Source: Escherichia phage EPIMAM01
Direction: 5' to 3' (one strand)
Sequence record: PQ493298
Length of the DNA stretch: 64,000 nt
The translations under genes and the position numbers were made by a program. The notes under the pieces were generated by a model. It was given only the letters and a program-made list of their open reading frames with translations. It was not told the DNA's origin and made no database searches. Position 1 is the stretch's first letter; each line of letters begins with the position of its first letter. This document shows positions 7,863 through 54,056 of this stretch, piece after piece.

Positions 7863-9676
7863 TGGTGTTTAACCCTATGCATGATTTCTTTATTTTTTCC
7901 AAGATTAAATCCGCGTTCGTTCGGATTTCCCAAATAACCACAAGTTCTTCTTATTGTGTTCATCTTTTTAGGATCAGTTTCTCCACAAATAGAACAAACA
8001 AATCCGTTTTCAGTAGGAGTCATTTCATGAGTACTTCCACACGTAAAACATTTATCTACTGGCATATTAACACCAAAATAATCTAAATGTTGTGCAGCAT
8101 AATCCCATACAGCCTCAAGACCTTTTAGGTTATTTTTCATATCAGGAAGTTCAACATAAGAAATGTGACCACCTGTCGCAATGAAATGATATGGGGCTTC
8201 GCGAGAAATCTTTTCAAACGGAGTAATATTTTCTTCTACTGAAACATGGAAACTGTTAGTGTACCAGCCTTTATCAGTAACATCCTTTACACTTCCATAT
8301 TTCTCAGTATCAAGTTTACAGAAGCGATAGCACAGGTTTTCAGCAGGAGTAGAATACAAGCTAAAAGCAAAACCGGTTCTTTCAGTCCACTGCTTAAGAC
8401 GAGCATTCATTTTAGTTAAAATTTCCTGTCCAATATCACGACCGACAAGAATATTCAATTCGTGAATACCAATGTATCCTAAGGACACTGAACTTCTACC
8501 GTTTTTAAATAACTCAATTATGTCGTCATCAGGTTTAAGACGAACCCCAAATGCACCTTCTTGGTAAAGAATAGGAGCAACAGTCGCTTTAACTCCTTTT
8601 AAGGAACTAATTCTACACATCAAAGCTTCAAAACACAAATCCATTCGTTCATTGAACAATTCAGCAAATTTCTGTTCATTGAACTGTGTTCCAATATAAG
8701 AATCTAACGCAATGCGAGGAAGATTCAGTGTTACAACGCCAAGATTATTACGTCCATCAAGAATTTCATTACCAGTCGAATCTTTCCATACGCTCAAGAA
8801 ACTACGGCAACCCATTGGAGAAACAGGAATAGATGAACCGGTGATAGCTTTATTGTTCTTAGCTGAAATAATATCAGGATACATTCTTTTGCTTGCACAC
8901 TCTAGAGCAAGCTGCTTAATATCATAGTTTGGATCGTCTTTATAAAGATTAACACCTTCTTCAACGAACATAACAAGCTTAGGGAAAATAGGAGTTATCC
9001 CATCACGACCAAGACCTTTAATACGATTTTTCAGAATTGCTTTCTGAATCATTCGTTCAGTCCAGTCAGTTCCCGTACCAAATGTAATTGTTACAAAAGG
9101 CGTTTGTCCGTTTGAACTAAAGAGAGTATTTACTTCATATTCATAAGCTTGGAATGCATCGTATACGTCTTTTTCTGTTTTAGACTGGGCGTAATTCAAT
9201 GCATCGGCGATTTGCCATTTTTCTGCATCCTCAATATGTTTTGCATAGGTGCGTTTAACATATGGAGAAAGTACTTTATCTACATTCGCAAAAGTCGTTC
9301 CGCCATATTGATGAGAAGCAACCTGTGCAGTAATTTGTGCCATAATTGCAGTAGCAACGCCGATTGATTTAGGAGTTTCAATCTGCGCATTACCGAGCTT
9401 AAATCCGTTCTCAAGCATTCCTTTTAAATCTACTAAACAGCAATTAGTAAATGGAAGAGCAGGGGAATAATCAATATCGTGGAAATGGATAATTCCGCTT
9501 TCATGCGCTTTCATAATAAAAGACGGGACCATATTTTTGGCAATGTGTTTAGACACAATACCAGCCATAAGGTCCCGTTGAGTTGGAAAAACACGAGAAT
9601 CTTTATTAGCATTCTCGTTCAAAAGGTCTTTATTAGTTTTATGAATCAATCCTTCAATTTCTTTTTCAATCGTCAT
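7859..9676 (-). CDS. nrdD: Anaerobic ribonucleoside-triphosphate reductase NrdD, uninterrupted
   Basis: 605 aa; C-terminal zinc ribbon CxxC...CxxC and glycyl-radical motif RTCGYLG. Confidence 0.9.
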   Translation of the reverse strand: MTIEKEIEGLIHKTNKDLLNENANKDSRVFPTQRDLMAGIVSKHIAKNMVPSFIMKAHESGIIHFHDIDYSPALPFTNCCLVDLKGMLENGFKLGNAQIETPKSIGVATAIMAQITAQVASHQYGGTTFANVDKVLSPYVKRTYAKHIEDAEKWQIADALNYAQSKTEKDVYDAFQAYEYEVNTLFSSNGQTPFVTITFGTGTDWTERMIQKAILKNRIKGLGRDGITPIFPKLVMFVEEGVNLYKDDPNYDIKQLALECASKRMYPDIISAKNNKAITGSSIPVSPMGCRSFLSVWKDSTGNEILDGRNNLGVVTLNLPRIALDSYIGTQFNEQKFAELFNERMDLCFEALMCRISSLKGVKATVAPILYQEGAFGVRLKPDDDIIELFKNGRSSVSLGYIGIHELNILVGRDIGQEILTKMNARLKQWTERTGFAFSLYSTPAENLCYRFCKLDTEKYGSVKDVTDKGWYTNSFHVSVEENITPFEKISREAPYHFIATGGHISYVELPDMKNNLKGLEAVWDYAAQHLDYFGVNMPVDKCFTCGSTHEMTPTENGFVCSICGETDPKKMNTIRRTCGYLGNPNERGFNLGKNKEIMHRVKHQ

Positions 9677-11264: not shown

Positions 11265-11654
11265 TTAATTTCGCAATTTATTAAGTTCTTCATAATCAAT
11301 CCAGGATTCTAGTCCTGATGGCAAATCAGATTCAATTTCCCAAAGAAGTTCTTCAATTTTCTGAAGACGATCTAATTCTTCAGCAGGAATAGTAACCATT
11401 GACGGAGTTCTTGATACGCTAATATCGTAAATCATATTTACCCCCAGTTTGACCATACAATCGCCATATTTCCATTTAGAAATAGACTTTTCACCATTAG
11501 AATAATAAACTTCAAGTTTAGCACGATTATTTTTAATTTGAATAACCTTTGCTGTCATCAAAGTTCCATACCCATAATAAACTGCAACCTCATCACCTAC
11601 ATATACCGCGCTTCCGCGGTAGTCATGGATATAATCAGTTCCTTCGAGCATCAT
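11265..11654 (-). CDS. Hypothetical protein
   Basis: 129-aa ORF; ATGA-coupled to nrdC. Confidence 0.5.
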   Translation of the reverse strand: MMLEGTDYIHDYRGSAVYVGDEVAVYYGYGTLMTAKVIQIKNNRAKLEVYYSNGEKSISKWKYGDCMVKLGVNMIYDISVSRTPSMVTIPAEELDRLQKIEELLWEIESDLPSGLESWIDYEELNKLRN

Positions 11655-11914
11655 TTAAAGTATTCCCGCAATTGGTCAAATCCACCAATATGACTTCCAT
11701 CAGGAGCAAATACTTGCGGCATTGTCAAACCAATTTGAGTATCACGACCTAGTTTCGTCAGAAGCTCAGCGATTTTCTCATCATCAAAAACACCTTTTTC
11801 CGGCATAATATTGATAAATTCAAACGGTTGTTTCTTAACAGTCAAAAGACGTTTTGCATTATCACAATACACGCATTTATGGATACTGCTATCATAACCA
11901 TATACTTTAAACAT
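11651..11914 (-). CDS. nrdC: Phage thioredoxin/glutaredoxin NrdC
   Basis: 87 aa; MFKVYGYDS..HKCVYCDNAKRLL CxxC motif, as recalled for T4 thioredoxin. Confidence 0.85.
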   Translation of the reverse strand: MFKVYGYDSSIHKCVYCDNAKRLLTVKKQPFEFINIMPEKGVFDDEKIAELLTKLGRDTQIGLTMPQVFAPDGSHIGGFDQLREYFK

Positions 11915-11915
11915 A

Positions 11916-12173
11916 TTATTCCTTAATTCCTAGTACTTGTTTAAAAGTCTCGTCGTAATCAAGACTTTGGCCCGTTTGTTCTTTATGTTTGTATATAATA
12001 TCACTTACTTCTGATAGCATATTTTTATATGAACGAGTTAAAGCAGATTTAAGCACGCTGTATCTATCAGGAAATTTACCATGTTCATTATAATACGCTA
12101 TTGCTAATTCACGGACTGCCTTTTCAGCAGTCTCCATATATTCTTTACGCTTTGTCATTTTCTTCTCGGTCAA
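11916..12173 (-). CDS. Hypothetical protein
   Basis: 85-aa ORF. Confidence 0.5.
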
Positions 12174-12462
12174 ATCGGTGTTTACAATGACGACATTTAT
12201 AACGAAGATTACTAGTCTGCCAATGAACTAATTGTACCTGTTCAGTACCGCATTCAGGACAATTAGGAACGTTTTTAGAACCCCTTTCGCGACGTTCAAC
12301 CATAGCCATAATGGCATCCCAAGCTGGAGGTTTAAAATCTAAATCATCGCAACCATGAATCTTTCCACGCATTTCCAGATCGTCTTCTTCACCAGCCATA
12401 ATAATTTTAATTAGACTGGAATTACTTGAAGCTGCAATATCTTCTAATAAGCGCTTTTTCAT
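12145..12462 (-). CDS. Hypothetical protein with C-terminal zinc ribbon
   Basis: CPECG...CRHCKH four-cysteine motif. Confidence 0.5.
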
Positions 12463-13385
12463 TTCAATACCTCAATAGCATTACGTAAACCATCTGCTTT
12501 GGCGGTTAAAGCCTTAAGAACTTTAGTATGCTCTTCAATCTGTTTTTCAACTTCAATCAAACGAGCACTGAGATATTCACGTTCTTCTTTCATAGTATCA
12601 TTCCCATGATTGTGCTTTGGTGTAGGTTTAAATTCGCTGGGGTCCTTTAACTTAATAACAAATTTAGTTTCAAACAGTGAAAGACCATAATTCGTATTAT
12701 CATCAAAGGATTTAACTACATCCATATTAGATAATAACTCACGCAAATTATAAGCCAAAGAACTAATAGTTTCATTGTGTTTATTAGCTTCGCGCGGTTT
12801 CATATACGAAAGATTTTTATATATCTCGTGCGGAGCACAAATGATAATTGATAATTCAAATTGTCCATTCTGGGATGATGGAGTGAATTTAGCAGTAACC
12901 CAGTCTTTTACATTCACATTAATAGTACGATTATCACCATGACAAAACAGTCTACGAGAATGCTTAAAAAGCATATTAACGTTCTCATTAAATTCACCTG
13001 AAAACTCACTAGCGAATTTTTCTTTACTATTTTTAGAAAACCATTCTTCTAAATAAGTTCTTTTCACGTCATTAATAATATTAAATGTAACAACATTAGC
13101 ATTTGATACATTAGTCTCAATGTAGCTTGGATACATAAATTTTTTAACATTATTAACAGCTATTACAGAAGATAGTAATCGGGAACGTTTGAACCACTCT
13201 AGCAAAGAACCAAGAGAATGTGAATATGCATTTTGTGTATCTTTACAAATATGGTTTTCCCATCCAATATAGTCTAAAAAATCACGAAGAATATTATTGA
13301 TTACTGCTCTGTGTCCGATCTGATAATTACGGTGTTTAGTAATAAGACTGTCAAAATAATCAATATAATGTTTACGAGTTTTCAT
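12459..13385 (-). CDS. Paralog A of a 4-member family: ~270-aa N-domain plus C-terminal coiled coil
   Basis: 308 aa; C-terminal heptad-like segment; shares SRLLS and NMDVV-like motifs with neighbours. Confidence 0.6.
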   Translation of the reverse strand: MKTRKHYIDYFDSLITKHRNYQIGHRAVINNILRDFLDYIGWENHICKDTQNAYSHSLGSLLEWFKRSRLLSSVIAVNNVKKFMYPSYIETNVSNANVVTFNIINDVKRTYLEEWFSKNSKEKFASEFSGEFNENVNMLFKHSRRLFCHGDNRTINVNVKDWVTAKFTPSSQNGQFELSIIICAPHEIYKNLSYMKPREANKHNETISSLAYNLRELLSNMDVVKSFDDNTNYGLSLFETKFVIKLKDPSEFKPTPKHNHGNDTMKEEREYLSARLIEVEKQIEEHTKVLKALTAKADGLRNAIEVLK

Positions 13386-13437
13386 GTTCTTCTCACTTGG
13401 TTAATGATTTATGCTCCGAGCCATCCTTGGCTTTAAA

Positions 13438-14439
13438 TTACTTAATTAATTGTAAAGCTTGTTCAAGACGATTCAGGCGATTAACAGATTCTTCCCAAAT
13501 CCTTTTAGCCTGCTCATAATCTTTCTGCGCTTTATTAGAAATTTCTAGAACTTCTTTATAAGCTTTTTCTAGTGCAATAACTTCTGGACGAATTTCTACC
13601 GGTTCAGGTGAATCGTCAAGACATTCCATTAGTTCCTCAAGGGTAGTTTCTTCTTTAGGAGTATTCACAATTTCTTCACATTTTTGTTGATAAATTTCTT
13701 TATCAGTCGGTGAGTACGCACACTTTACTTCACGGAGACTAACTACAATTTTATATCCTTCCCAACCGCATATATTCTTAAAAGGATAAGTATGAATATT
13801 TTCTACTGTTTCCATACAAAGTAATGCGGTCTCTAACTGACGAGTTATATCGCTAGCAATTGAGAAAAATTTATTAATGTTCTTTTGATTAGCTTCTGGT
13901 GTAAAAAATTCATAATTCACAAAAATAGCTGCTTTATTTTTATCAAGTTCATATTCTTTTATGATAATCATATCAGAAGCCCAAGGATGAATTTGACGAT
14001 AATCGCCATAGCATAATTTAGAAGCTGATTTTAGAATTTGCTTTTTGAAAAGTCTGAAATTACTAATCCAACGACGAGTAAAAATATTCTCAGGGTCTTC
14101 TTTATTATTAAGATGATATGAATTAACATCACCGAACCAATTATATCCTACTACATCTTTAGTTCGTTTAATTTCTTTCCCAAATTTACCGAGAATATCT
14201 TGGTTAACTAAATATGAAAGAAGACGAGAACCTTTGAAGGTTTCCTTAATATCATCTTTATATTCGCGACTAGAAATTTTATGAACTTCATGAATAAATT
14301 TGTTGGAAGAGACAATACTTGCATCAGTATTATTGAGCCATTGATTGATAATGGAAATAACACTATTCTGACTAGACACAGGTTTAACTTTATCATCAAT
14401 AACGCTATTGAATGATTTGATATATTCGTTACGAGTCAT
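13438..14439 (-). CDS. Paralog B of coiled-coil-tailed family
   Basis: 333 aa from ATG 14439 with GAGGAG Shine-Dalgarno; track N-terminal extension rejected. Confidence 0.6.
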   Translation of the reverse strand: MTRNEYIKSFNSVIDDKVKPVSSQNSVISIINQWLNNTDASIVSSNKFIHEVHKISSREYKDDIKETFKGSRLLSYLVNQDILGKFGKEIKRTKDVVGYNWFGDVNSYHLNNKEDPENIFTRRWISNFRLFKKQILKSASKLCYGDYRQIHPWASDMIIIKEYELDKNKAAIFVNYEFFTPEANQKNINKFFSIASDITRQLETALLCMETVENIHTYPFKNICGWEGYKIVVSLREVKCAYSPTDKEIYQQKCEEIVNTPKEETTLEELMECLDDSPEPVEIRPEVIALEKAYKEVLEISNKAQKDYEQAKRIWEESVNRLNRLEQALQLIK

Positions 14440-14467
14440 ATTAATCTCCTCAGTAGAAAGTAAGAAT

Positions 14468-14497
14468 ATTATACCACATCCTTGTGGCAAAGTAAAC
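14468..14497 (-). promoter_or_regulatory. T4-type early promoter (GTTTAC / TATAAT)
   Basis: gtaaac 14492-14497, attata 14468-14473, 18-nt spacer. Confidence 0.5.
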
Positions 14498-15519
14498 TAG
14501 TTTAGTGCATTTAGTGCATTGTTCAGTTTAGAACGTTGCTTCGTAAGATTTTTGACTTTTTCTTGAGCTTTTTCTAGCATCTTTTCAGCTTCTAACACTT
14601 CATTAGTTGCTTTAACGAGTTCATCATCTACTGCCTTGATAGACTTCTCAATCGCATCCGCATGCCATTTTTCAACAGGTTTAAGACTCGGATTTTCAAC
14701 AGGAAGAAAATTCACTTTATTGAATTTCCATGCATCTTTATTACTTGAACTATACATCCAAAATTTAGGATCGTTTGATGAGTAATTGGATAAATTTAAG
14801 TTATCTTGCACTTCCTGCTTTTTCTCTTGTGGGACTTCGTCCTTTCTCAAAAAATCGTATTTAAATGAAACGATCATATCAAGTTCATACGTTGTTGTAT
14901 GTTCCCAATTTCGCTCAAAATGAGGTAAAATCTTAGACTGAACAGCGGCAACAACATCCATATACTTAAATGCTTCTGTCAACTGTGATTTAAGGCATTC
15001 GCAAATTGAAAGAGAATTTTTTGTATTAGGTTTAAAGCTAATTCGCGCAGTTCTGTTATTTTCTTTTAATGGTCTTACTTCCATCTGAAGAGTATAACCA
15101 TCAAATTTCAGATTCTTTAAGTTAATATCAGAACCTTTTAATCGACTCGCAATTGATAAAATTTGTTTTAATTGTTTACGGAATAGAGCAATAAATCTCC
15201 ATTCAATACGATAATGATTTGGATTGAAAAATCCAGATGATAAATCGACCTTACTTTGGCCAACACCTTGAACAAATAGAGGATTTTTATAATCAATAGT
15301 TTTACAGAAATCAGTGAGCTGCTCACGAGCCGTCATTTGTGTAATATATCCTGCTTGGTTAAAATTGCGCACCCATTCACTGCTGTTCAGATGTTTAAAG
15401 GCATGAATGGAACAATTAACTTTACCAAGGTCTAAATTATTTTCACACAAAAACGTCATAGCATCACGAGTATAGCTGGCATTACGAACCATATCTTCAA
15501 TTTGAGAACGAGTTTTCAT
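14497..15519 (-). CDS. Paralog C of coiled-coil-tailed family
   Basis: 340 aa; C-terminal coiled coil (…KMLEKAQEKVKNLTKQRSKLNNALNALN). Confidence 0.6.
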   Translation of the reverse strand: MKTRSQIEDMVRNASYTRDAMTFLCENNLDLGKVNCSIHAFKHLNSSEWVRNFNQAGYITQMTAREQLTDFCKTIDYKNPLFVQGVGQSKVDLSSGFFNPNHYRIEWRFIALFRKQLKQILSIASRLKGSDINLKNLKFDGYTLQMEVRPLKENNRTARISFKPNTKNSLSICECLKSQLTEAFKYMDVVAAVQSKILPHFERNWEHTTTYELDMIVSFKYDFLRKDEVPQEKKQEVQDNLNLSNYSSNDPKFWMYSSSNKDAWKFNKVNFLPVENPSLKPVEKWHADAIEKSIKAVDDELVKATNEVLEAEKMLEKAQEKVKNLTKQRSKLNNALNALN

Positions 15520-15527
15520 GGTGTTCC

Positions 15528-16361
15528 TTAAGATTTAAGTAAATCGACAATTTTAATTAACTTTTCACGCTCAGATTTAGCTTTACTACTCAGTCCAGAT
15601 AGTCTGAAAATTTCATCATCATATTGTTGAATAGAAATATTCAGCTCTTCAATCTGTTTATTAAAATAATCAATTTGTTCAGAATGTTTTTCGTTACTAC
15701 GAACTGGTACAGGTTTCGTAGGCAATGTAGTTGAACTGGATTCATCCGGGCGATAAATTAAAATACAACTTGAACCAATAGGGCATTTTGCACCAGATGA
15801 ATATTCTAATGTTCCAGCTTCTTTTAAAACTTCAAAAGCTAAACAGAGATGATGCCCCATATTGACATAATCTGTAGAGCGAGCTCTGATATAATAATCA
15901 TCGCCACGAATACTAAATTTAAAGCATTTAAGGTCTTCTGTATTATTGGTCTTAAAAATCATTTGTTTATCTAGACCTTTAGCTAATCGAGCGCCTAATG
16001 CTAATAATCGTCTTTGATTTTCCCACAAATCCGCAATCATTTGATCGAATGATAATTTTGGCATTAGTCGACCATAAAGGTCATATCCTTTATTATAATT
16101 ACGAAGGATTTCACTCGCGTTAATACGAGACAATGCTCCAATTTTATTAAGGGCTTTCATAATGCGATTAGATAAACTCATTCCAGATCCGTTTGTTCGC
16201 TGCAAATGTTTTTCTAATCCAAATCCAATATCAACTTTAAACTTATCTAAAATTTCTGCATGAACATCTCTGTCAATAACATTCAAATCCAAAGCTGGGT
16301 TAAATCTATGAAAAAATTTATCTGGCTCTGCACTGCGAAATACAGTCCATTCATTCATCAT
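15528..16361 (-). CDS. Paralog D of coiled-coil-tailed family
   Basis: 277 aa; C-terminal coiled coil. Confidence 0.6.
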   Translation of the reverse strand: MMNEWTVFRSAEPDKFFHRFNPALDLNVIDRDVHAEILDKFKVDIGFGLEKHLQRTNGSGMSLSNRIMKALNKIGALSRINASEILRNYNKGYDLYGRLMPKLSFDQMIADLWENQRRLLALGARLAKGLDKQMIFKTNNTEDLKCFKFSIRGDDYYIRARSTDYVNMGHHLCLAFEVLKEAGTLEYSSGAKCPIGSSCILIYRPDESSSTTLPTKPVPVRSNEKHSEQIDYFNKQIEELNISIQQYDDEIFRLSGLSSKAKSEREKLIKIVDLLKS

Positions 16362-16426
16362 TTTTTTTATTAACTAAAGATTTAATTACTGCATTGACAT
16401 TATTAATTACTACTGACATATTTTCC

Positions 16427-16834
16427 TCACTCAATTTCAATTTTACTAAATATACAGAATAAGATGGAACAGACTATATAAGCACCGCACACAGATTGAA
16501 CTAATACCATTCCAAAGAACCAAACAATATTATCAAACAATGTCTGTTTTACGTCGAAAGGACGTAAACTTACAGTAATATTATCACCTTTTTCTATTGA
16601 AGAATACATCTCTGGGGAAATATATTCACTAAATCTATAACCGTCTTTTAGTTCATATACGGCAATAAACGATAAACTAGACCCTTTTCCTTGTGTTCCT
16701 GTAATGGTATTAACTACAGTAACATCATAATCTTTATAATGCATATAATCATTAATTGCGTAATAACCATATGCAATTACTACACATAAACAACATATCA
16801 ATAAATTCAATCTTTTAATTATCAACTGTTTCAT
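16427..16834 (-). CDS. Membrane protein (N- and C-terminal hydrophobic helices)
   Basis: 135 aa; hydrophobic segments at both ends. Confidence 0.55.
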   Translation of the reverse strand: MKQLIIKRLNLLICCLCVVIAYGYYAINDYMHYKDYDVTVVNTITGTQGKGSSLSFIAVYELKDGYRFSEYISPEMYSSIEKGDNITVSLRPFDVKQTLFDNIVWFFGMVLVQSVCGAYIVCSILFCIFSKIEIE

Positions 16835-16889
16835 AATAATCTCAATTAAAAGGGCTTAGAACCATTATACCATCCTTGGTATAAAGCGG

Positions 16890-17417
16890 TTATGCGAGTA
16901 CCGTCTTTAACCGTTCTTCAAACTTCCGAAGAGTATTTTGGCGTTCAGCTCTTTGCTTTTTGTAAGTTTCAATACGCTCTGAAATGAGAGTGTATCGTTC
17001 ATTTACTGATTCTTTCATAAAATCAGGAATTTCACGAGAAGCTTTAATCTCGTCAAATTTATCAATAACAGCTTGCTCTTCAGCAATTAAGTTATCATAC
17101 ATTAAAATATCTTTCTTGATGAACTCAATATCTTCTTGAGTTACACGAGATAATTTAGATGCTTTATCCTTTTTGTACTGTTTGTTAGTATCACGAGACC
17201 AGTGTAATGTACGATTTTTATTCGTATTTTTGTAAATTTCTACAATACCGATCTCATCAATAATAACGATCCAATTCCAACGGGATTTGTAAATTTGTCC
17301 TCCATCAACAGTGATTTCACCTCCGATTGAGATGTCATTAAAGAACTTGCTTTGTGCCTCAGATTTAAATTTACCATCGTTGTAATTTACCAAGTTGAAA
17401 ATATCTTTAGCGTTCAT
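16890..17417 (-). CDS. Hypothetical protein
   Basis: 175-aa ORF; charged C-terminal helix. Confidence 0.55.
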   Translation of the reverse strand: MNAKDIFNLVNYNDGKFKSEAQSKFFNDISIGGEITVDGGQIYKSRWNWIVIIDEIGIVEIYKNTNKNRTLHWSRDTNKQYKKDKASKLSRVTQEDIEFIKKDILMYDNLIAEEQAVIDKFDEIKASREIPDFMKESVNERYTLISERIETYKKQRAERQNTLRKFEERLKTVLA

Positions 17418-17881: not shown

Positions 17882-18868
17882 TTATTTCAGAAGAGTAACC
17901 TCAGCAATTTCTTCCCAACCGTTTTTGTCGGTCATAATAAAGTCAGCAAGATAAAGAGCAGTACGCAGTGAAACATTGCGTAAACGATTAACATTAACTT
18001 TCATCCATGATAATGCTTTATAAGTTTCTTCATCAGAAAGACCGCGCTTTTGCATCATGTCAGTTGAAAGAATAACATCTTCAACCCTGACCATAATTTC
18101 TTCATTAGTGTGAACACCCAAATCTAAATAAACCGAGCGGGACACTAATGCTTGTAAATGTGGAGCAAGTTTAGTACCACGGTCTAATTCGCGGTCAATG
18201 TCAACGTTTGTGATAAAAACAATCGTTCCTTTAAATTCAAACTCACGCTCAATGCCTTTTTCTTCTAAGTAAGAAGACGCAGTGCTCCAGCAGACTTTAC
18301 GGGTCTCTCCAGTGTCCAGAGCGGCTTTTAGAAGATTAAGAATGTCCATATCAGAGAAAACATCCACATCATCAATTAAAAGGACAGAATTCTCTTCACG
18401 ATTATTCCAGAGCTGCTCATAAAGACCAATACCAGAGATTTTACCGTTAATGCTTTTATATTCAATGTATCCAATATCATTTGCTTTATTTAAAGCTTTA
18501 TCTAAAGAATACGTTTTACCAATACCTGCCGCACCAGAGATAATCAATGAACGAATATTTCCGTTAATAATACCATTCGTCATCATTCCCATAACATTAA
18601 ATCTTTTATTAATGCGGGTTTTCATATCTTCATATGATTCTTTAACTTCTTCAACTTTTACACCATCATATGAAATGTCTGATTTGTAAACCCAAACACC
18701 GCGACGTTTACCATCAATTTCAACAAAAACTTTACCATCTCCTTGTGCATCTACCGGAGCATTATCTGGGAACCATTCGCCTAAGAGCTCAAAAGTTCCA
18801 GAGATTTCTTTACCGAAGTAGATACCCTTATTGATAGTTACAGTTTTCATTTTATTCTCCAATTTCAC
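17882..18868 (-). CDS. P-loop ATPase (AAA-like)
   Basis: 328 aa; Walker A GAAGIGKTYS and Walker B VLLIDDVD. Confidence 0.65.
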   Translation of the reverse strand: MKLENKMKTVTINKGIYFGKEISGTFELLGEWFPDNAPVDAQGDGKVFVEIDGKRRGVWVYKSDISYDGVKVEEVKESYEDMKTRINKRFNVMGMMTNGIINGNIRSLIISGAAGIGKTYSLDKALNKANDIGYIEYKSINGKISGIGLYEQLWNNREENSVLLIDDVDVFSDMDILNLLKAALDTGETRKVCWSTASSYLEEKGIEREFEFKGTIVFITNVDIDRELDRGTKLAPHLQALVSRSVYLDLGVHTNEEIMVRVEDVILSTDMMQKRGLSDEETYKALSWMKVNVNRLRNVSLRTALYLADFIMTDKNGWEEIAEVTLLK

Positions 18869-26117: not shown

Positions 26118-26655
26118 TTACTATTTCCAAAAGTTTATTATTTTTAAGGTAATTAGCCTTTTCTAGGACTTCAGAAGCATATTTAGAACCTGCTTTAACA
26201 TTCCATCCCGAATTATAAGAGGATATTGCTTTTCTTATATCGCCCTTATGTATATTTAACCAATAAGAAAGTTCAATGTACGCCCAGGAAGCTGAATTGG
26301 ACCGTTTATTCAACATTCTTTTTATTTCAGCATCGGTCATATTATAACCAAGTTCCTTAACTCTTGCTCGCATAGTAGGCAAATAATTTTGGAACATTCC
26401 ATAGGCATGATGCTTTGGTTTAGATTTTAAATTAACTCCGGCAGAGCTTTCTTGCCATAAAATAGCAGCCATTATATGACCCAATCCGCTCTTGTGGATG
26501 TTTTTGTGTGTTTTATATTTTCCATCCTTAGAAAATTGTTCCCCGAATTGATATGCGTAGCGCATGTTATCGAGTTGGACATTACTGAAAGTATGCTCGG
26601 AGCTATGTGCCATCATTGAAATGGCCAATAGACCAGCGAGTAGTGCTTTTCTCAT
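26110..26655 (-). CDS. Secreted lytic transglycosylase-like protein
   Basis: 181 aa; signal peptide; SLT-like motifs WQESSAG, GMFQ, SYNSG. Confidence 0.65.
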   Translation of the reverse strand: MRKALLAGLLAISMMAHSSEHTFSNVQLDNMRYAYQFGEQFSKDGKYKTHKNIHKSGLGHIMAAILWQESSAGVNLKSKPKHHAYGMFQNYLPTMRARVKELGYNMTDAEIKRMLNKRSNSASWAYIELSYWLNIHKGDIRKAISSYNSGWNVKAGSKYASEVLEKANYLKNNKLLEIVND

Positions 26656-53189: not shown

Positions 53190-54056
53190 ATGTTCATTCA
53201 AGAACCAAAGAAATTGATTGATACCGGCGAAATTGGTAACGCTTCTACTGGTGATATCTTATTCGACGGTGGTAATAAAATTAATAGTGATTTTAACGCA
53301 ATTTATAATGCGTTTGGCGATCAGCGCAAAATGGCAGTAGCAAATGGCACTGGAGCAAATGGCCAAATTATCCATGCTACTGGATATTATCAAAAGCACT
53401 CTATAGCAGAGTACGCAACTCCAGTAAAAGTTGGCACTAGACATGATATTGATACCTCTACTGTAGGTGTTAAAGTTATCATTGAAAAAGGCGAACTTGG
53501 CGACTGTGTTGAATTTATTAACTCAAATGGATCAATATCAGTTACTAATCCTTTAACAATTCAGGCTATTGATTCAATCAAAGGTGTTTCGGGTAATTTG
53601 GTAGTAACTAGCCCATATAGTAAAGTTACTTTACGATGTATTTCATCTGATAATTCTACATCTGTTTGGAATTATTCTATTGAAAGTATGTTTGGACAAA
53701 AGGAATCACCAGCTGAAGGTACATGGAATATTTCTACATCTGGATCAGTTGACATTCCACTATTTCACCGTACTGAATATAACATGGCTAAATTGTTAGT
53801 TACGTGCCAATCGATAGATGGAAGAAAAATTAAAACAGCAGAAATAAATATTCTTGTGGATAATGTTAATTCAGAGGTCATTTCTTCTGAATATGCTGTC
53901 ATGCGAGTTGGGAATGAAACTGAAGAAGACGAAATCGCTAATATTGCATTTAGTATTAAAACAAATTATGTAACAGCGACTATAAGTTCTTCAACTGTCG
54001 GTATGAGAGCAGCAGTTAAAGTTATCGCTACGCAGAAAATCGGGGTGGCTCAATAA
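53190..54056 (+). CDS. 9: Baseplate protein gp9 (long tail fibre attachment)
   Basis: 288 aa; synteny. Confidence 0.9.
   Translation: MFIQEPKKLIDTGEIGNASTGDILFDGGNKINSDFNAIYNAFGDQRKMAVANGTGANGQIIHATGYYQKHSIAEYATPVKVGTRHDIDTSTVGVKVIIEKGELGDCVEFINSNGSISVTNPLTIQAIDSIKGVSGNLVVTSPYSKVTLRCISSDNSTSVWNYSIESMFGQKESPAEGTWNISTSGSVDIPLFHRTEYNMAKLLVTCQSIDGRKIKTAEINILVDNVNSEVISSEYAVMRVGNETEEDEIANIAFSIKTNYVTATISSSTVGMRAAVKVIATQKIGVAQ

Follow-up and report, generated by a model that had tools for sequence, protein, structure and literature searches.

What is a run of four similarly built genes doing in the early region of a T4-like phage, and do these genes share a common origin? We addressed this question for a 64,000-nucleotide stretch of Escherichia phage EPIMAM01 (sequence record PQ493298; hereafter, the window), which belongs to a Tequatrovirus (T2/T4-like) genome. 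A first-pass annotation of the window had described four consecutive minus-strand genes of 308, 333, 340 and 277 residues at positions 12459-16361 as diverged tandem paralogs, and the listing of open reading frames (ORFs) confirmed the coordinates and lengths. The genes are nrdC.3 (12459-13385; 308 residues), nrdC.4 (13438-14439; 333 residues from its ATG, with a 350-residue version from a TTG start also listed), nrdC.5 (14497-15519; 340 residues) and nrdC.6 (15528-16361; 277 residues as an ORF in the window), the last being the most diverged. The 5 kb around the array share 98.9% identity with Shigella phage vB_SsoM_113 and 94-96% with phage T2 and a large number of other Tequatrovirus genomes, in which the region is annotated nrdC.3 to nrdC.7, and the T4 record has the same gene order. 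Both nrdC.3 and nrdC.5 are 91% identical to their T4 counterparts, nrdC.5 at the equivalent genome position. We conclude that all four genes constitute one superfamily, nrdC.6 being placed there by transitive evidence, and we lean towards the reading that they are diverged paralogues of a Tevenvirinae-specific early-gene family whose products antagonise immune sensors of the host by stoichiometric, non-enzymatic action.

When the four proteins were compared pairwise by BLASTP, only nrdC.3 and nrdC.4 were related (24.8% identity across 270 residues, E = 1e-3 with a database of six sequences); all other pairs gave noise. With nrdC.5 alone as the query of a word-indexed homologue search, all relatives found were at least 80% identical, and distant relatives came from synteny. 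Orthologues were gathered in this way from T4, Dhakavirus, Gaprivervirus, Mosigvirus and IMG/VR loci, and the family profiles were compared by hhalign. The nrdC.3 and nrdC.4 families matched with a probability of 97.6% (E = 2.7e-12, 210 columns). An initial run of these two families against nrdC.5 yielded 33-50% (P = 1.7e-4 to 4.4e-4) over 163-263 collinear columns, and inclusion of Mosigvirus and two metagenomic bridging members gave 96.7% (E = 4.2e-10, 246 columns). Without bridging sequences, a joint nrdC.3 and nrdC.4 profile matched nrdC.5 with 91.7% (E = 7.7e-7, 235 columns), and the N-terminal domains by themselves gave 79.5-88.5% (P = 1.5e-5 to 2.7e-6, 134-135 columns). As controls, the tail and the N-terminal domain of nrdC.8 did not exceed 0.8% with any family, and reversed profiles stayed at or below 0.5%. 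Judged by these profiles, the similarity of nrdC.3, nrdC.4 and nrdC.5 is homology far beyond chance. An exhaustive hidden Markov model (HMM) search with the nrdC.5 profile returned 15 proteins in all, and the family is therefore narrow. We also considered nrdC.8 (175 residues, with a helical C terminus) as a fifth member and rejected it on the scores given above.

The connection to nrdC.6 runs through phages that carry a single copy of the gene. Kanagawavirus (Enterobacter phage CIP9, Edwardsiella phage PEi20 and others), Mosugukvirus (Pectobacterium phage PM2) and Marfavirus (Klebsiella phage F48) have one gene encoding 309-338 residues directly upstream of nrdC.2, the position that nrdC.3 or nrdC.4 holds in T-even phages. 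A profile of the Kanagawavirus and PM2 genes matched nrdC.6 with 95.5% (E = 1.5e-8) over 251 collinear columns, and with 94.2% in another run. The same profile matched nrdC.5 with 94.7% (E = 5.9e-8, 215 columns), and Kanagawavirus profiles with or without PM2 matched nrdC.3/nrdC.4 with 77.8-86.3% (107-254 columns). The Marfavirus gene gave 97.4% against nrdC.3/nrdC.4, 94.9% against nrdC.5 and 97% against the Kanagawavirus genes. With the tails removed, the Kanagawavirus and PM2 profile matched nrdC.6 with 89.4% (P = 2.1e-6) and the PM2 core alone with 89.9%, and the tails by themselves gave 81-96%. Because the tail-less comparison stays at 89.4%, and the nrdC.8 and reversed-profile controls are negative, the link of nrdC.6 goes beyond coiled-coil composition. 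Two motifs, LALGARL..G....FKT and P-V-P-V/E..H, are common to nrdC.6 and the Kanagawavirus genes. A merged-profile match of 78% for nrdC.6 was not relied on, as it hinged on the assignment of match columns. From collinear profile similarity, direct or through intermediates and accompanied by negative controls, we propose a single NrdC.3-6 superfamily.

Pfam (PF26897, PF23882 and PF26899) and the PHROGs (1435, 2351 and 2257) list three separate families of unknown function, grouping nrdC.3 with nrdC.4 and keeping nrdC.5 and nrdC.6 each apart, whereas our analysis merges them through the single-copy genes of Kanagawavirus, Mosugukvirus and Marfavirus. In the window, nrdC.3 (E = 6.5e-99) and nrdC.4 (E = 7.8e-166) share full-length matches to PHROG 1435, nrdC.5 belongs to PHROG 2351 and nrdC.6 to PHROG 2257 (E = 1.6e-142). 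Over residues 1-340, nrdC.5 matches DUF7235 (PF23882) with 422.3 bits (cut-off 30, E = 1.6e-126), a model to which the other three proteins gave no match in the local Pfam scan. In the same scan nrdC.3 and nrdC.4 were not matched by PF26897 (Phage_T4_Y04OP), nor nrdC.6 by PF26899 (Phage_T4_Y05B), both models being probably newer than the local copy. Precomputed annotations of relatives contain PF26897 for the Mosigvirus nrdC.3-type gene and for proteins P0178 and P0056, while PF26899 is carried by nrdC.6 orthologues (45-50% identity) and by the positionally equivalent 277-residue gene of locus L028. The grouping of nrdC.3 with nrdC.4 and an anti-defence role of nrdC.5 (see below) were thus already known; new, relative to the databases and papers searched, are the proposed four-gene superfamily, its putative ancestral single-copy gene, the series of one, three and four copies, and the domain map.

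The comparison across T-even genomes that the first-pass annotation had suggested gave one, three or four copies depending on the genus. In Kanagawavirus, Mosugukvirus and Marfavirus the single gene is followed by nrdC.2. Three copies are present in Mosigvirus (nrdC.6-type, nrdC.5-type, nrdC.3-type) and in Dhakavirus and Gaprivervirus, where the order is nrdC.6, a small membrane ORF, an nrdC.5-type gene and nrdC.4; the nrdC.4 orthologues of these two genera are 43-51% identical and lie directly upstream of nrdC.2. Tequatrovirus has all four (nrdC.6, nrdC.5, nrdC.4, nrdC.3). Profile-profile comparison with negative controls, synteny and this copy-number series across Tevenvirinae genera together uphold the description as tandem paralogs. 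Fast divergence, likewise claimed at first pass, was also found: array members are 22-55% identical between genera, against 52-90% for nrdC, nrdC.1, nrdC.2, nrdC.8 and nrdC.10 (nrdC 84-90%, nrdC.10 77-79%, nrdC.8 63-84%, nrdC.1 and nrdC.2 52-79%), with nrdC.9 (27-38%) as the sole neighbour as diverged as the array. We propose that the ancestor had a single family gene beside nrdC.2, and that the family would have grown to three and then four copies in genera infecting E. coli. Phages with one, three and four copies offer a natural series for following how an anti-defence repertoire might grow by tandem duplication.

At the nrdC.6/nrdC.5 position, the single-copy phages have a conserved protein of about 256-261 residues (F48 gp053, CIP9 gp197, PM2 gp095; L019:4269-5042, L020:4238-5008 and L021:3458-4243), together with two or three small ORFs. 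F48 gp053 and CIP9 gp197, the two of these proteins that were compared, matched none of the family profiles.

The proteins had been described at first pass as a domain of about 250 residues followed by a coiled-coil tail of about 35 residues. A simple heptad score (best 28-residue window, 300 shuffles per protein) placed the top window at the C terminus of all four proteins. The observed score was reached by none of the 300 shuffles for nrdC.3 and nrdC.5, by 10 for nrdC.4 and by 22 for nrdC.6, so that the signal is clearly above shuffles for the first two and weaker for the others. The best window of nrdC.3 covers residues 270-305. AlphaFold2 models were made for nrdC.5, from a 64-sequence family alignment, and for nrdC.6. 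The nrdC.5 model has low-confidence N-terminal helices (residues 1-55), an alpha/beta core (residues 56-228; DNA 14836-15354) with a block predicted local distance difference test (pLDDT) value of about 80-93, a disordered linker (residues 229-281; DNA 14677-14835; pLDDT below 50) and one long C-terminal helix of 58 residues (residues 282-339; DNA about 14500-14676; pLDDT 75-89). The nrdC.6 model, of low confidence (mean pLDDT 50.6), shows a long helix (105-127), a hairpin (144-161), a further helix (167-181), two short strands, a linker and C-terminal helices at 224-253 and 259-276 (DNA about 15531-15692); the order of these elements matches that of nrdC.5 at nearly equal positions. The predicted C-terminal heptad helix of nrdC.3 spans roughly residues 262-308 (DNA 12462-12602), and the tail of nrdC.4 roughly residues 283-333 (DNA 13441-13593). 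Therefore, the heptad tail was retained for all four proteins with a length of about 50-58 rather than 35 residues, and the N-terminal domain was redefined as a composite of variable helices, a conserved alpha/beta core of about 170 residues and a disordered linker of 20-55 residues.

Five conserved blocks could be read from a 15-sequence superfamily alignment. Block 1 (F-K/R-x-S-R-h-L-S ... L-x-N-F-G-K) includes SRLLS and block 3 (Q-L-x-x-A-h-x-x-M-D-x-V) includes MDVV, which places the SRLLS and xMDVV motifs picked out at first pass at homologous positions and argues against a chance resemblance. Block 2 (F-x-x-F-x-x-N-x-x-x-h-L-x-h-A-S-R-L-x-x-G) is the long helix, block 4 (P-x-x-x-P-V-E-x-x-H) lies immediately ahead of the tail, and block 5 (Q-R-x-K-L-x-x-A-h-x-x-L-K) forms the extreme C terminus. 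Each protein can be divided into five parts, with variable N-terminal helices, a conserved alpha/beta core, a variable disordered linker, a conserved P-x-x-P-V-E-x-H entry motif and a C-terminal amphipathic helix of about 55 residues that ends in L-x-x-A-h-x-x-L-K and is probably an oligomerising coiled coil. Within Tequatrovirus, nrdC.5 varies mostly in the N-terminal helices, at residues about 190-210 and in the linker, with core and tail conserved. The resulting map can guide mutagenesis, with the variable N-terminal region and linker, the conserved core, the PVE-H motif and the coiled-coil tail as separate targets.

An early promoter inside the array, as proposed at first pass, is supported by its consensus match, by conservation across four genera and by an independent annotation. 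It is of the T4 type (14468-14497, minus strand; GTTTAC-N18-TATAAT with a TG-extended -10; 10/12 plus TG in a consensus scan, or TTTACT-N17-TATAAT in sigma-70 form) and sits between nrdC.5 and nrdC.4, in a gap of 57 bp. The promoter is identical in every Tequatrovirus locus examined (the window, T4 and five others), is matched in position by a site preceding the nrdC.4- or nrdC.3-type gene of Gaprivervirus, Dhakavirus and Mosigvirus, and is annotated as a "predicted early promoter" at the equivalent site in the record of Yersinia phage fPS-65.

The function of one family member has been addressed experimentally. A plasmid-borne, expressed copy of T4 nrdC.5 enables a deletion phage to plate again on E. 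coli carrying dsr1 of ECOR17 (Srikant, Guegler and Laub, eLife 2022; PMC9391042). In the same study, nrdC.5 lay inside the deletion of a viable evolved clone, those deletions hit no essential T4 gene, and the genes, which are early, can be dispensed with on laboratory hosts. There, nrdC.5 figures as one uncharacterised early gene, with no account of domain architecture, mechanism or a relationship to nrdC.3, nrdC.4 and nrdC.6. The gene at 14497-15519 of the window is orthologous to T4 nrdC.5, with 91% identity, DUF7235 and an equivalent genome position; the anti-Dsr1 activity is that of the T4 allele. The sensor of Dsr1, shared with Avs7, is reported to be triggered by the phage major capsid protein (2026 preprint, bioRxiv 10.64898/2026.01.04.697583). 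Among neighbouring genes, gp49.2 inhibits OLD (PMC13096335) and nrdC.1 inhibits Septu (bioRxiv 2025.11.20.689424). For one member, then, the arms race with the host proposed at first pass has published support (PMC9391042).

The further claim that no catalytic motif is visible agrees with our searches, as Pfam, NCBIfam and PDB sequence searches found no enzyme domain. NCBIfam models gave no match and the PDB contained no relative by sequence, the sole match to the nrdC.5 profile being an Smc coiled coil (E = 0.02). A Foldseek search of the PDB with the nrdC.5 model, the one of sufficient quality for a fold search, returned nothing significant (best E = 0.055). Against BFVD, the model matched uncharacterised proteins of Erwinia phage Cronus, Klebsiella phage Mineola and Aeromonas phage 65.2 with probability 1.0, and T4 nrdC.3, nrdC.4 and nrdC.6 were not among the matches.

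Given the anti-Dsr1 activity of nrdC.5, the anti-defence neighbours and the capsid trigger of Dsr1, we therefore regard an early family of sensor antagonists as the best model, one that we hold to be somewhat probable. The proteins would be made early in infection and antagonise immune sensors stoichiometrically, without enzyme activity. NrdC.5 would neutralise the SIR2 NADase Dsr1, most likely by direct binding, ahead of the late capsid protein, and the products of nrdC.3, nrdC.4 and nrdC.6 may be adapted to different sensors or alleles. NrdC.5 might thereby resemble DSAD1, which is described as a small, non-enzymatic phage inhibitor of the SIR2 NADase DSR2, itself triggered by the tail tube. 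Other known T-even anti-defence loci (gp49.2 against OLD, nrdC.1 against Septu, the dmd/tifA/adfA island and IPI-IPIII) resemble the array in neighbourhood, in consisting of dispensable early genes, in a putative assignment of one defence to each gene and in varying between phages. These loci encode mostly small, unrelated proteins, whereas NrdC.3-6 is one tandem-amplified family that has diverged to less than 25% identity.

Several points weigh against this model. All family alignments are shallow (effective number of sequences, Neff, about 1.6-2.7). An experimental phenotype exists for nrdC.5 alone, for its T4 allele and from one paper on infection rescue (PMC9391042), and the literature searched reports no function or phenotype for nrdC.3, nrdC.4 or nrdC.6. 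In direct profile comparisons, nrdC.6 reached only 3.8-7.7% against nrdC.5 and 0.4-1.1% against nrdC.3/nrdC.4, neither of which is significant, and its membership is suggested by transitive evidence and by a low-confidence model (pLDDT 50.6). Oligomerisation of the NrdC.3-6 proteins, finally, is something that we infer.

An alternative that we consider unlikely, and yet take seriously, accepts the family as real and holds that its members are not direct sensor inhibitors. On this view their targets would be phage or host assemblies: they could, for instance, be early factors with a chaperone-like or shielding function, concealing or postponing the trigger (capsid or other structural proteins), or could modulate host machinery. 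The effect of nrdC.5 on Dsr1 would then be indirect. Against this stand the restoration of infection on dsr1 cells by nrdC.5 alone from a plasmid (PMC9391042), the early expression and dispensability of the genes on laboratory hosts, and the inhibition of specific defences (OLD, Septu) by neighbouring genes. The fold similarity is also weak and non-specific, as comparable scores are obtained for ribosomal protein S6 and RNA polymerase alpha.

A more elaborate version of sensor antagonism appears rather improbable to us. Here the proteins would be modular, coiled-coil-tethered decoys, in which a conserved, tail-terminator-like core and the conserved tail form an oligomeric scaffold, the hypervariable N-terminal helices and linker direct each paralogue to a different bacterial pattern-recognition sensor, and the array pre-emptively blinds several sensors of structural proteins. 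Capsid-sensing domains of the Dsr1/Avs7 family could be among those blinded before late expression.

It is very improbable, in our assessment, that only nrdC.3, nrdC.4 and nrdC.5 are homologous and that nrdC.6 is an unrelated gene of convergent layout, with profile matches produced by coiled-coil composition. This would fit the non-significant direct profiles, the poor structure model and the separate nrdC.6 families in PHROGs and Pfam. It is opposed by the link to the single-copy genes, which survives on the N-terminal domain alone and extends over 251 collinear columns, by the negative coiled-coil controls, by the two motifs shared with Kanagawavirus genes, by the order of secondary-structure elements in the low-confidence model, which is that of nrdC.5, and by the presence of a syntenic nrdC.6 in every multi-copy array.

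A morphogenetic or structural role of the encoded proteins, as relatives of tail terminators, can practically be dismissed, given the conserved early promoter within an early gene block, the loss of T4 nrdC.5 in a viable evolved clone (PMC9391042), the lack of a sequence match to any tail family in Pfam or PHROGs, the non-significant Foldseek search of the PDB and the individual phages with disrupted, fused or duplicated copies. When set beside the tail terminator fold (lambda gpU, DUF3168, T5 p142), the array genes show no sequence similarity and are early and dispensable rather than late. Their products further differ in having a coiled-coil tail, a disordered linker and additional helices at the N terminus, and two-layer alpha/beta folds of other kinds reach nearly the same scores. 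Membership among tail terminator or completion proteins (gpU-like, DUF3168), judged on a combination of fold, sequence family, late expression and virion role, was rejected.

Returning to the sensor-antagonist model, the published block of Dsr1 by nrdC.5 together with the paralogy makes nrdC.3, nrdC.4 and nrdC.6 good candidates for immune blockers and thereby provides three concrete candidates for new anti-defence activities. The escape of T4 from a capsid-sensing SIR2 system also becomes directly testable. The value of the array thus lies in good experimental leverage rather than in a surprising new principle.

The array is frequently remodelled in natural phages. A nrdC.5::nrdC.3 fusion with loss of nrdC.4 was found on four contigs from different samples, for example in metagenomic T4-like genomes at L028:3570-4900 and L029:1931-3261. 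In the fusion protein (P0056, 299 residues), residues about 148-270 of nrdC.5 are followed by the C-terminal half of nrdC.3; the junction lies at non-equivalent positions, near N-K-V-N in nrdC.5 and N-E-N-V-N-M in nrdC.3, and a preceding 115-residue ORF was taken as a putative remnant of the nrdC.5 5' end. Elsewhere, nrdC.4 is split into 193 and 158 residues (L007:8890-9922), the nrdC.5-type gene of SP18 is split into 170 and 125 residues (L002:5038-5942), and nrdC.6 of Shigella phage Sf25 (P0057, 378 residues) has an internal duplication of about 80 residues. In a comparison of the window gene with L004, L007 and L018:8999-9949, nrdC.3 fell into two Tequatrovirus allele lineages that are about 60% identical to each other. 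Identity to the Mosigvirus gene is about 55% for the T4/T2/window type and 74-77% for an RB9 type, a pattern that suggests exchange between genera. Proteins P0176, P0181 and P0169 have an nrdC.5-type C-terminal helix (identical in P0176) on an unrelated N terminus, and may be real domain swaps or assembly chimeras. P0176 is encoded on a contig of 803 bp (L030) and P0169 on one of 1,873 bp; because of such short contigs, the three proteins were not used as evidence of domain shuffling.

The neighbouring genes are on the minus strand as well. On one side lie nrdC (thioredoxin; 11651-11914), nrdC.1 (11916-12173) and the zinc-ribbon gene nrdC.2 (12145-12462), whose start overlaps the nrdC.3 stop. 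Across the genomes compared, nrdC.2 is always directly downstream of whichever family member adjoins the nrdC side. On the other side are the very hydrophobic nrdC.7 (16427-16834), annotated in T4 as a membrane protein, nrdC.8 (16890-17417) and the AAA-type ATPase gene nrdC.10 (17882-18868), which has weak AAA/STAND-like NTPase matches and is 75-79% identical across genera.

The spacer of the early promoter contains a hairpin with an AAGGAT loop (14472-14489, minus strand), and a second hairpin with the same loop (AGCC-AAGGAT-GGCT; 13419-13432, minus strand) lies in the nrdC.4/nrdC.3 gap. In the promoter spacer the stem co-varies between genera (TGCCAC/GTGGTA, CTTCC/GGAGG, CATCC/GGATG and CAACC/GGTTG) and the loop is kept. 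The window has seven AAGGAT-loop hairpins on the transcribed strand and none on the other, where shuffles lead to an expectation of 1.7 ± 1.2; besides the two above, they are at 16865-16884, 26517-26536, 53542-53559, 13495-13508 and 9644-9659, all minus strand. The hairpin may act on read-through transcripts as an element of RNA processing, stability or attenuation.

The start of nrdC.6 differs between the window and its relatives. In T4 and other relatives it lies 18-19 codons further upstream (MSVVINNVNAVIKSLVNKK...), at an ATG behind a GAGG Shine-Dalgarno sequence. A remnant of this longer 5' end is seen in the window at 16362-16429 (minus strand; compared with T4, L004, L006 and L007), with the GAGG Shine-Dalgarno sequence and an ATG at 16417 that opens a 22-codon ORF (MSVVINNVNAVIKSLVNKKNDE*), in frame with nrdC.6 in the relatives. 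The window has a run of eight A near 16372-16379, where T4 has seven and others have AAAAAATT. This run shifts the frame, and the nrdC.6 ORF of the window therefore starts at 16361. The eight-A run could reflect a true truncation followed by re-initiation, or slippage, or else an error in sequencing the homopolymer. The T4 RefSeq annotation likewise takes the downstream nrdC.6 start.

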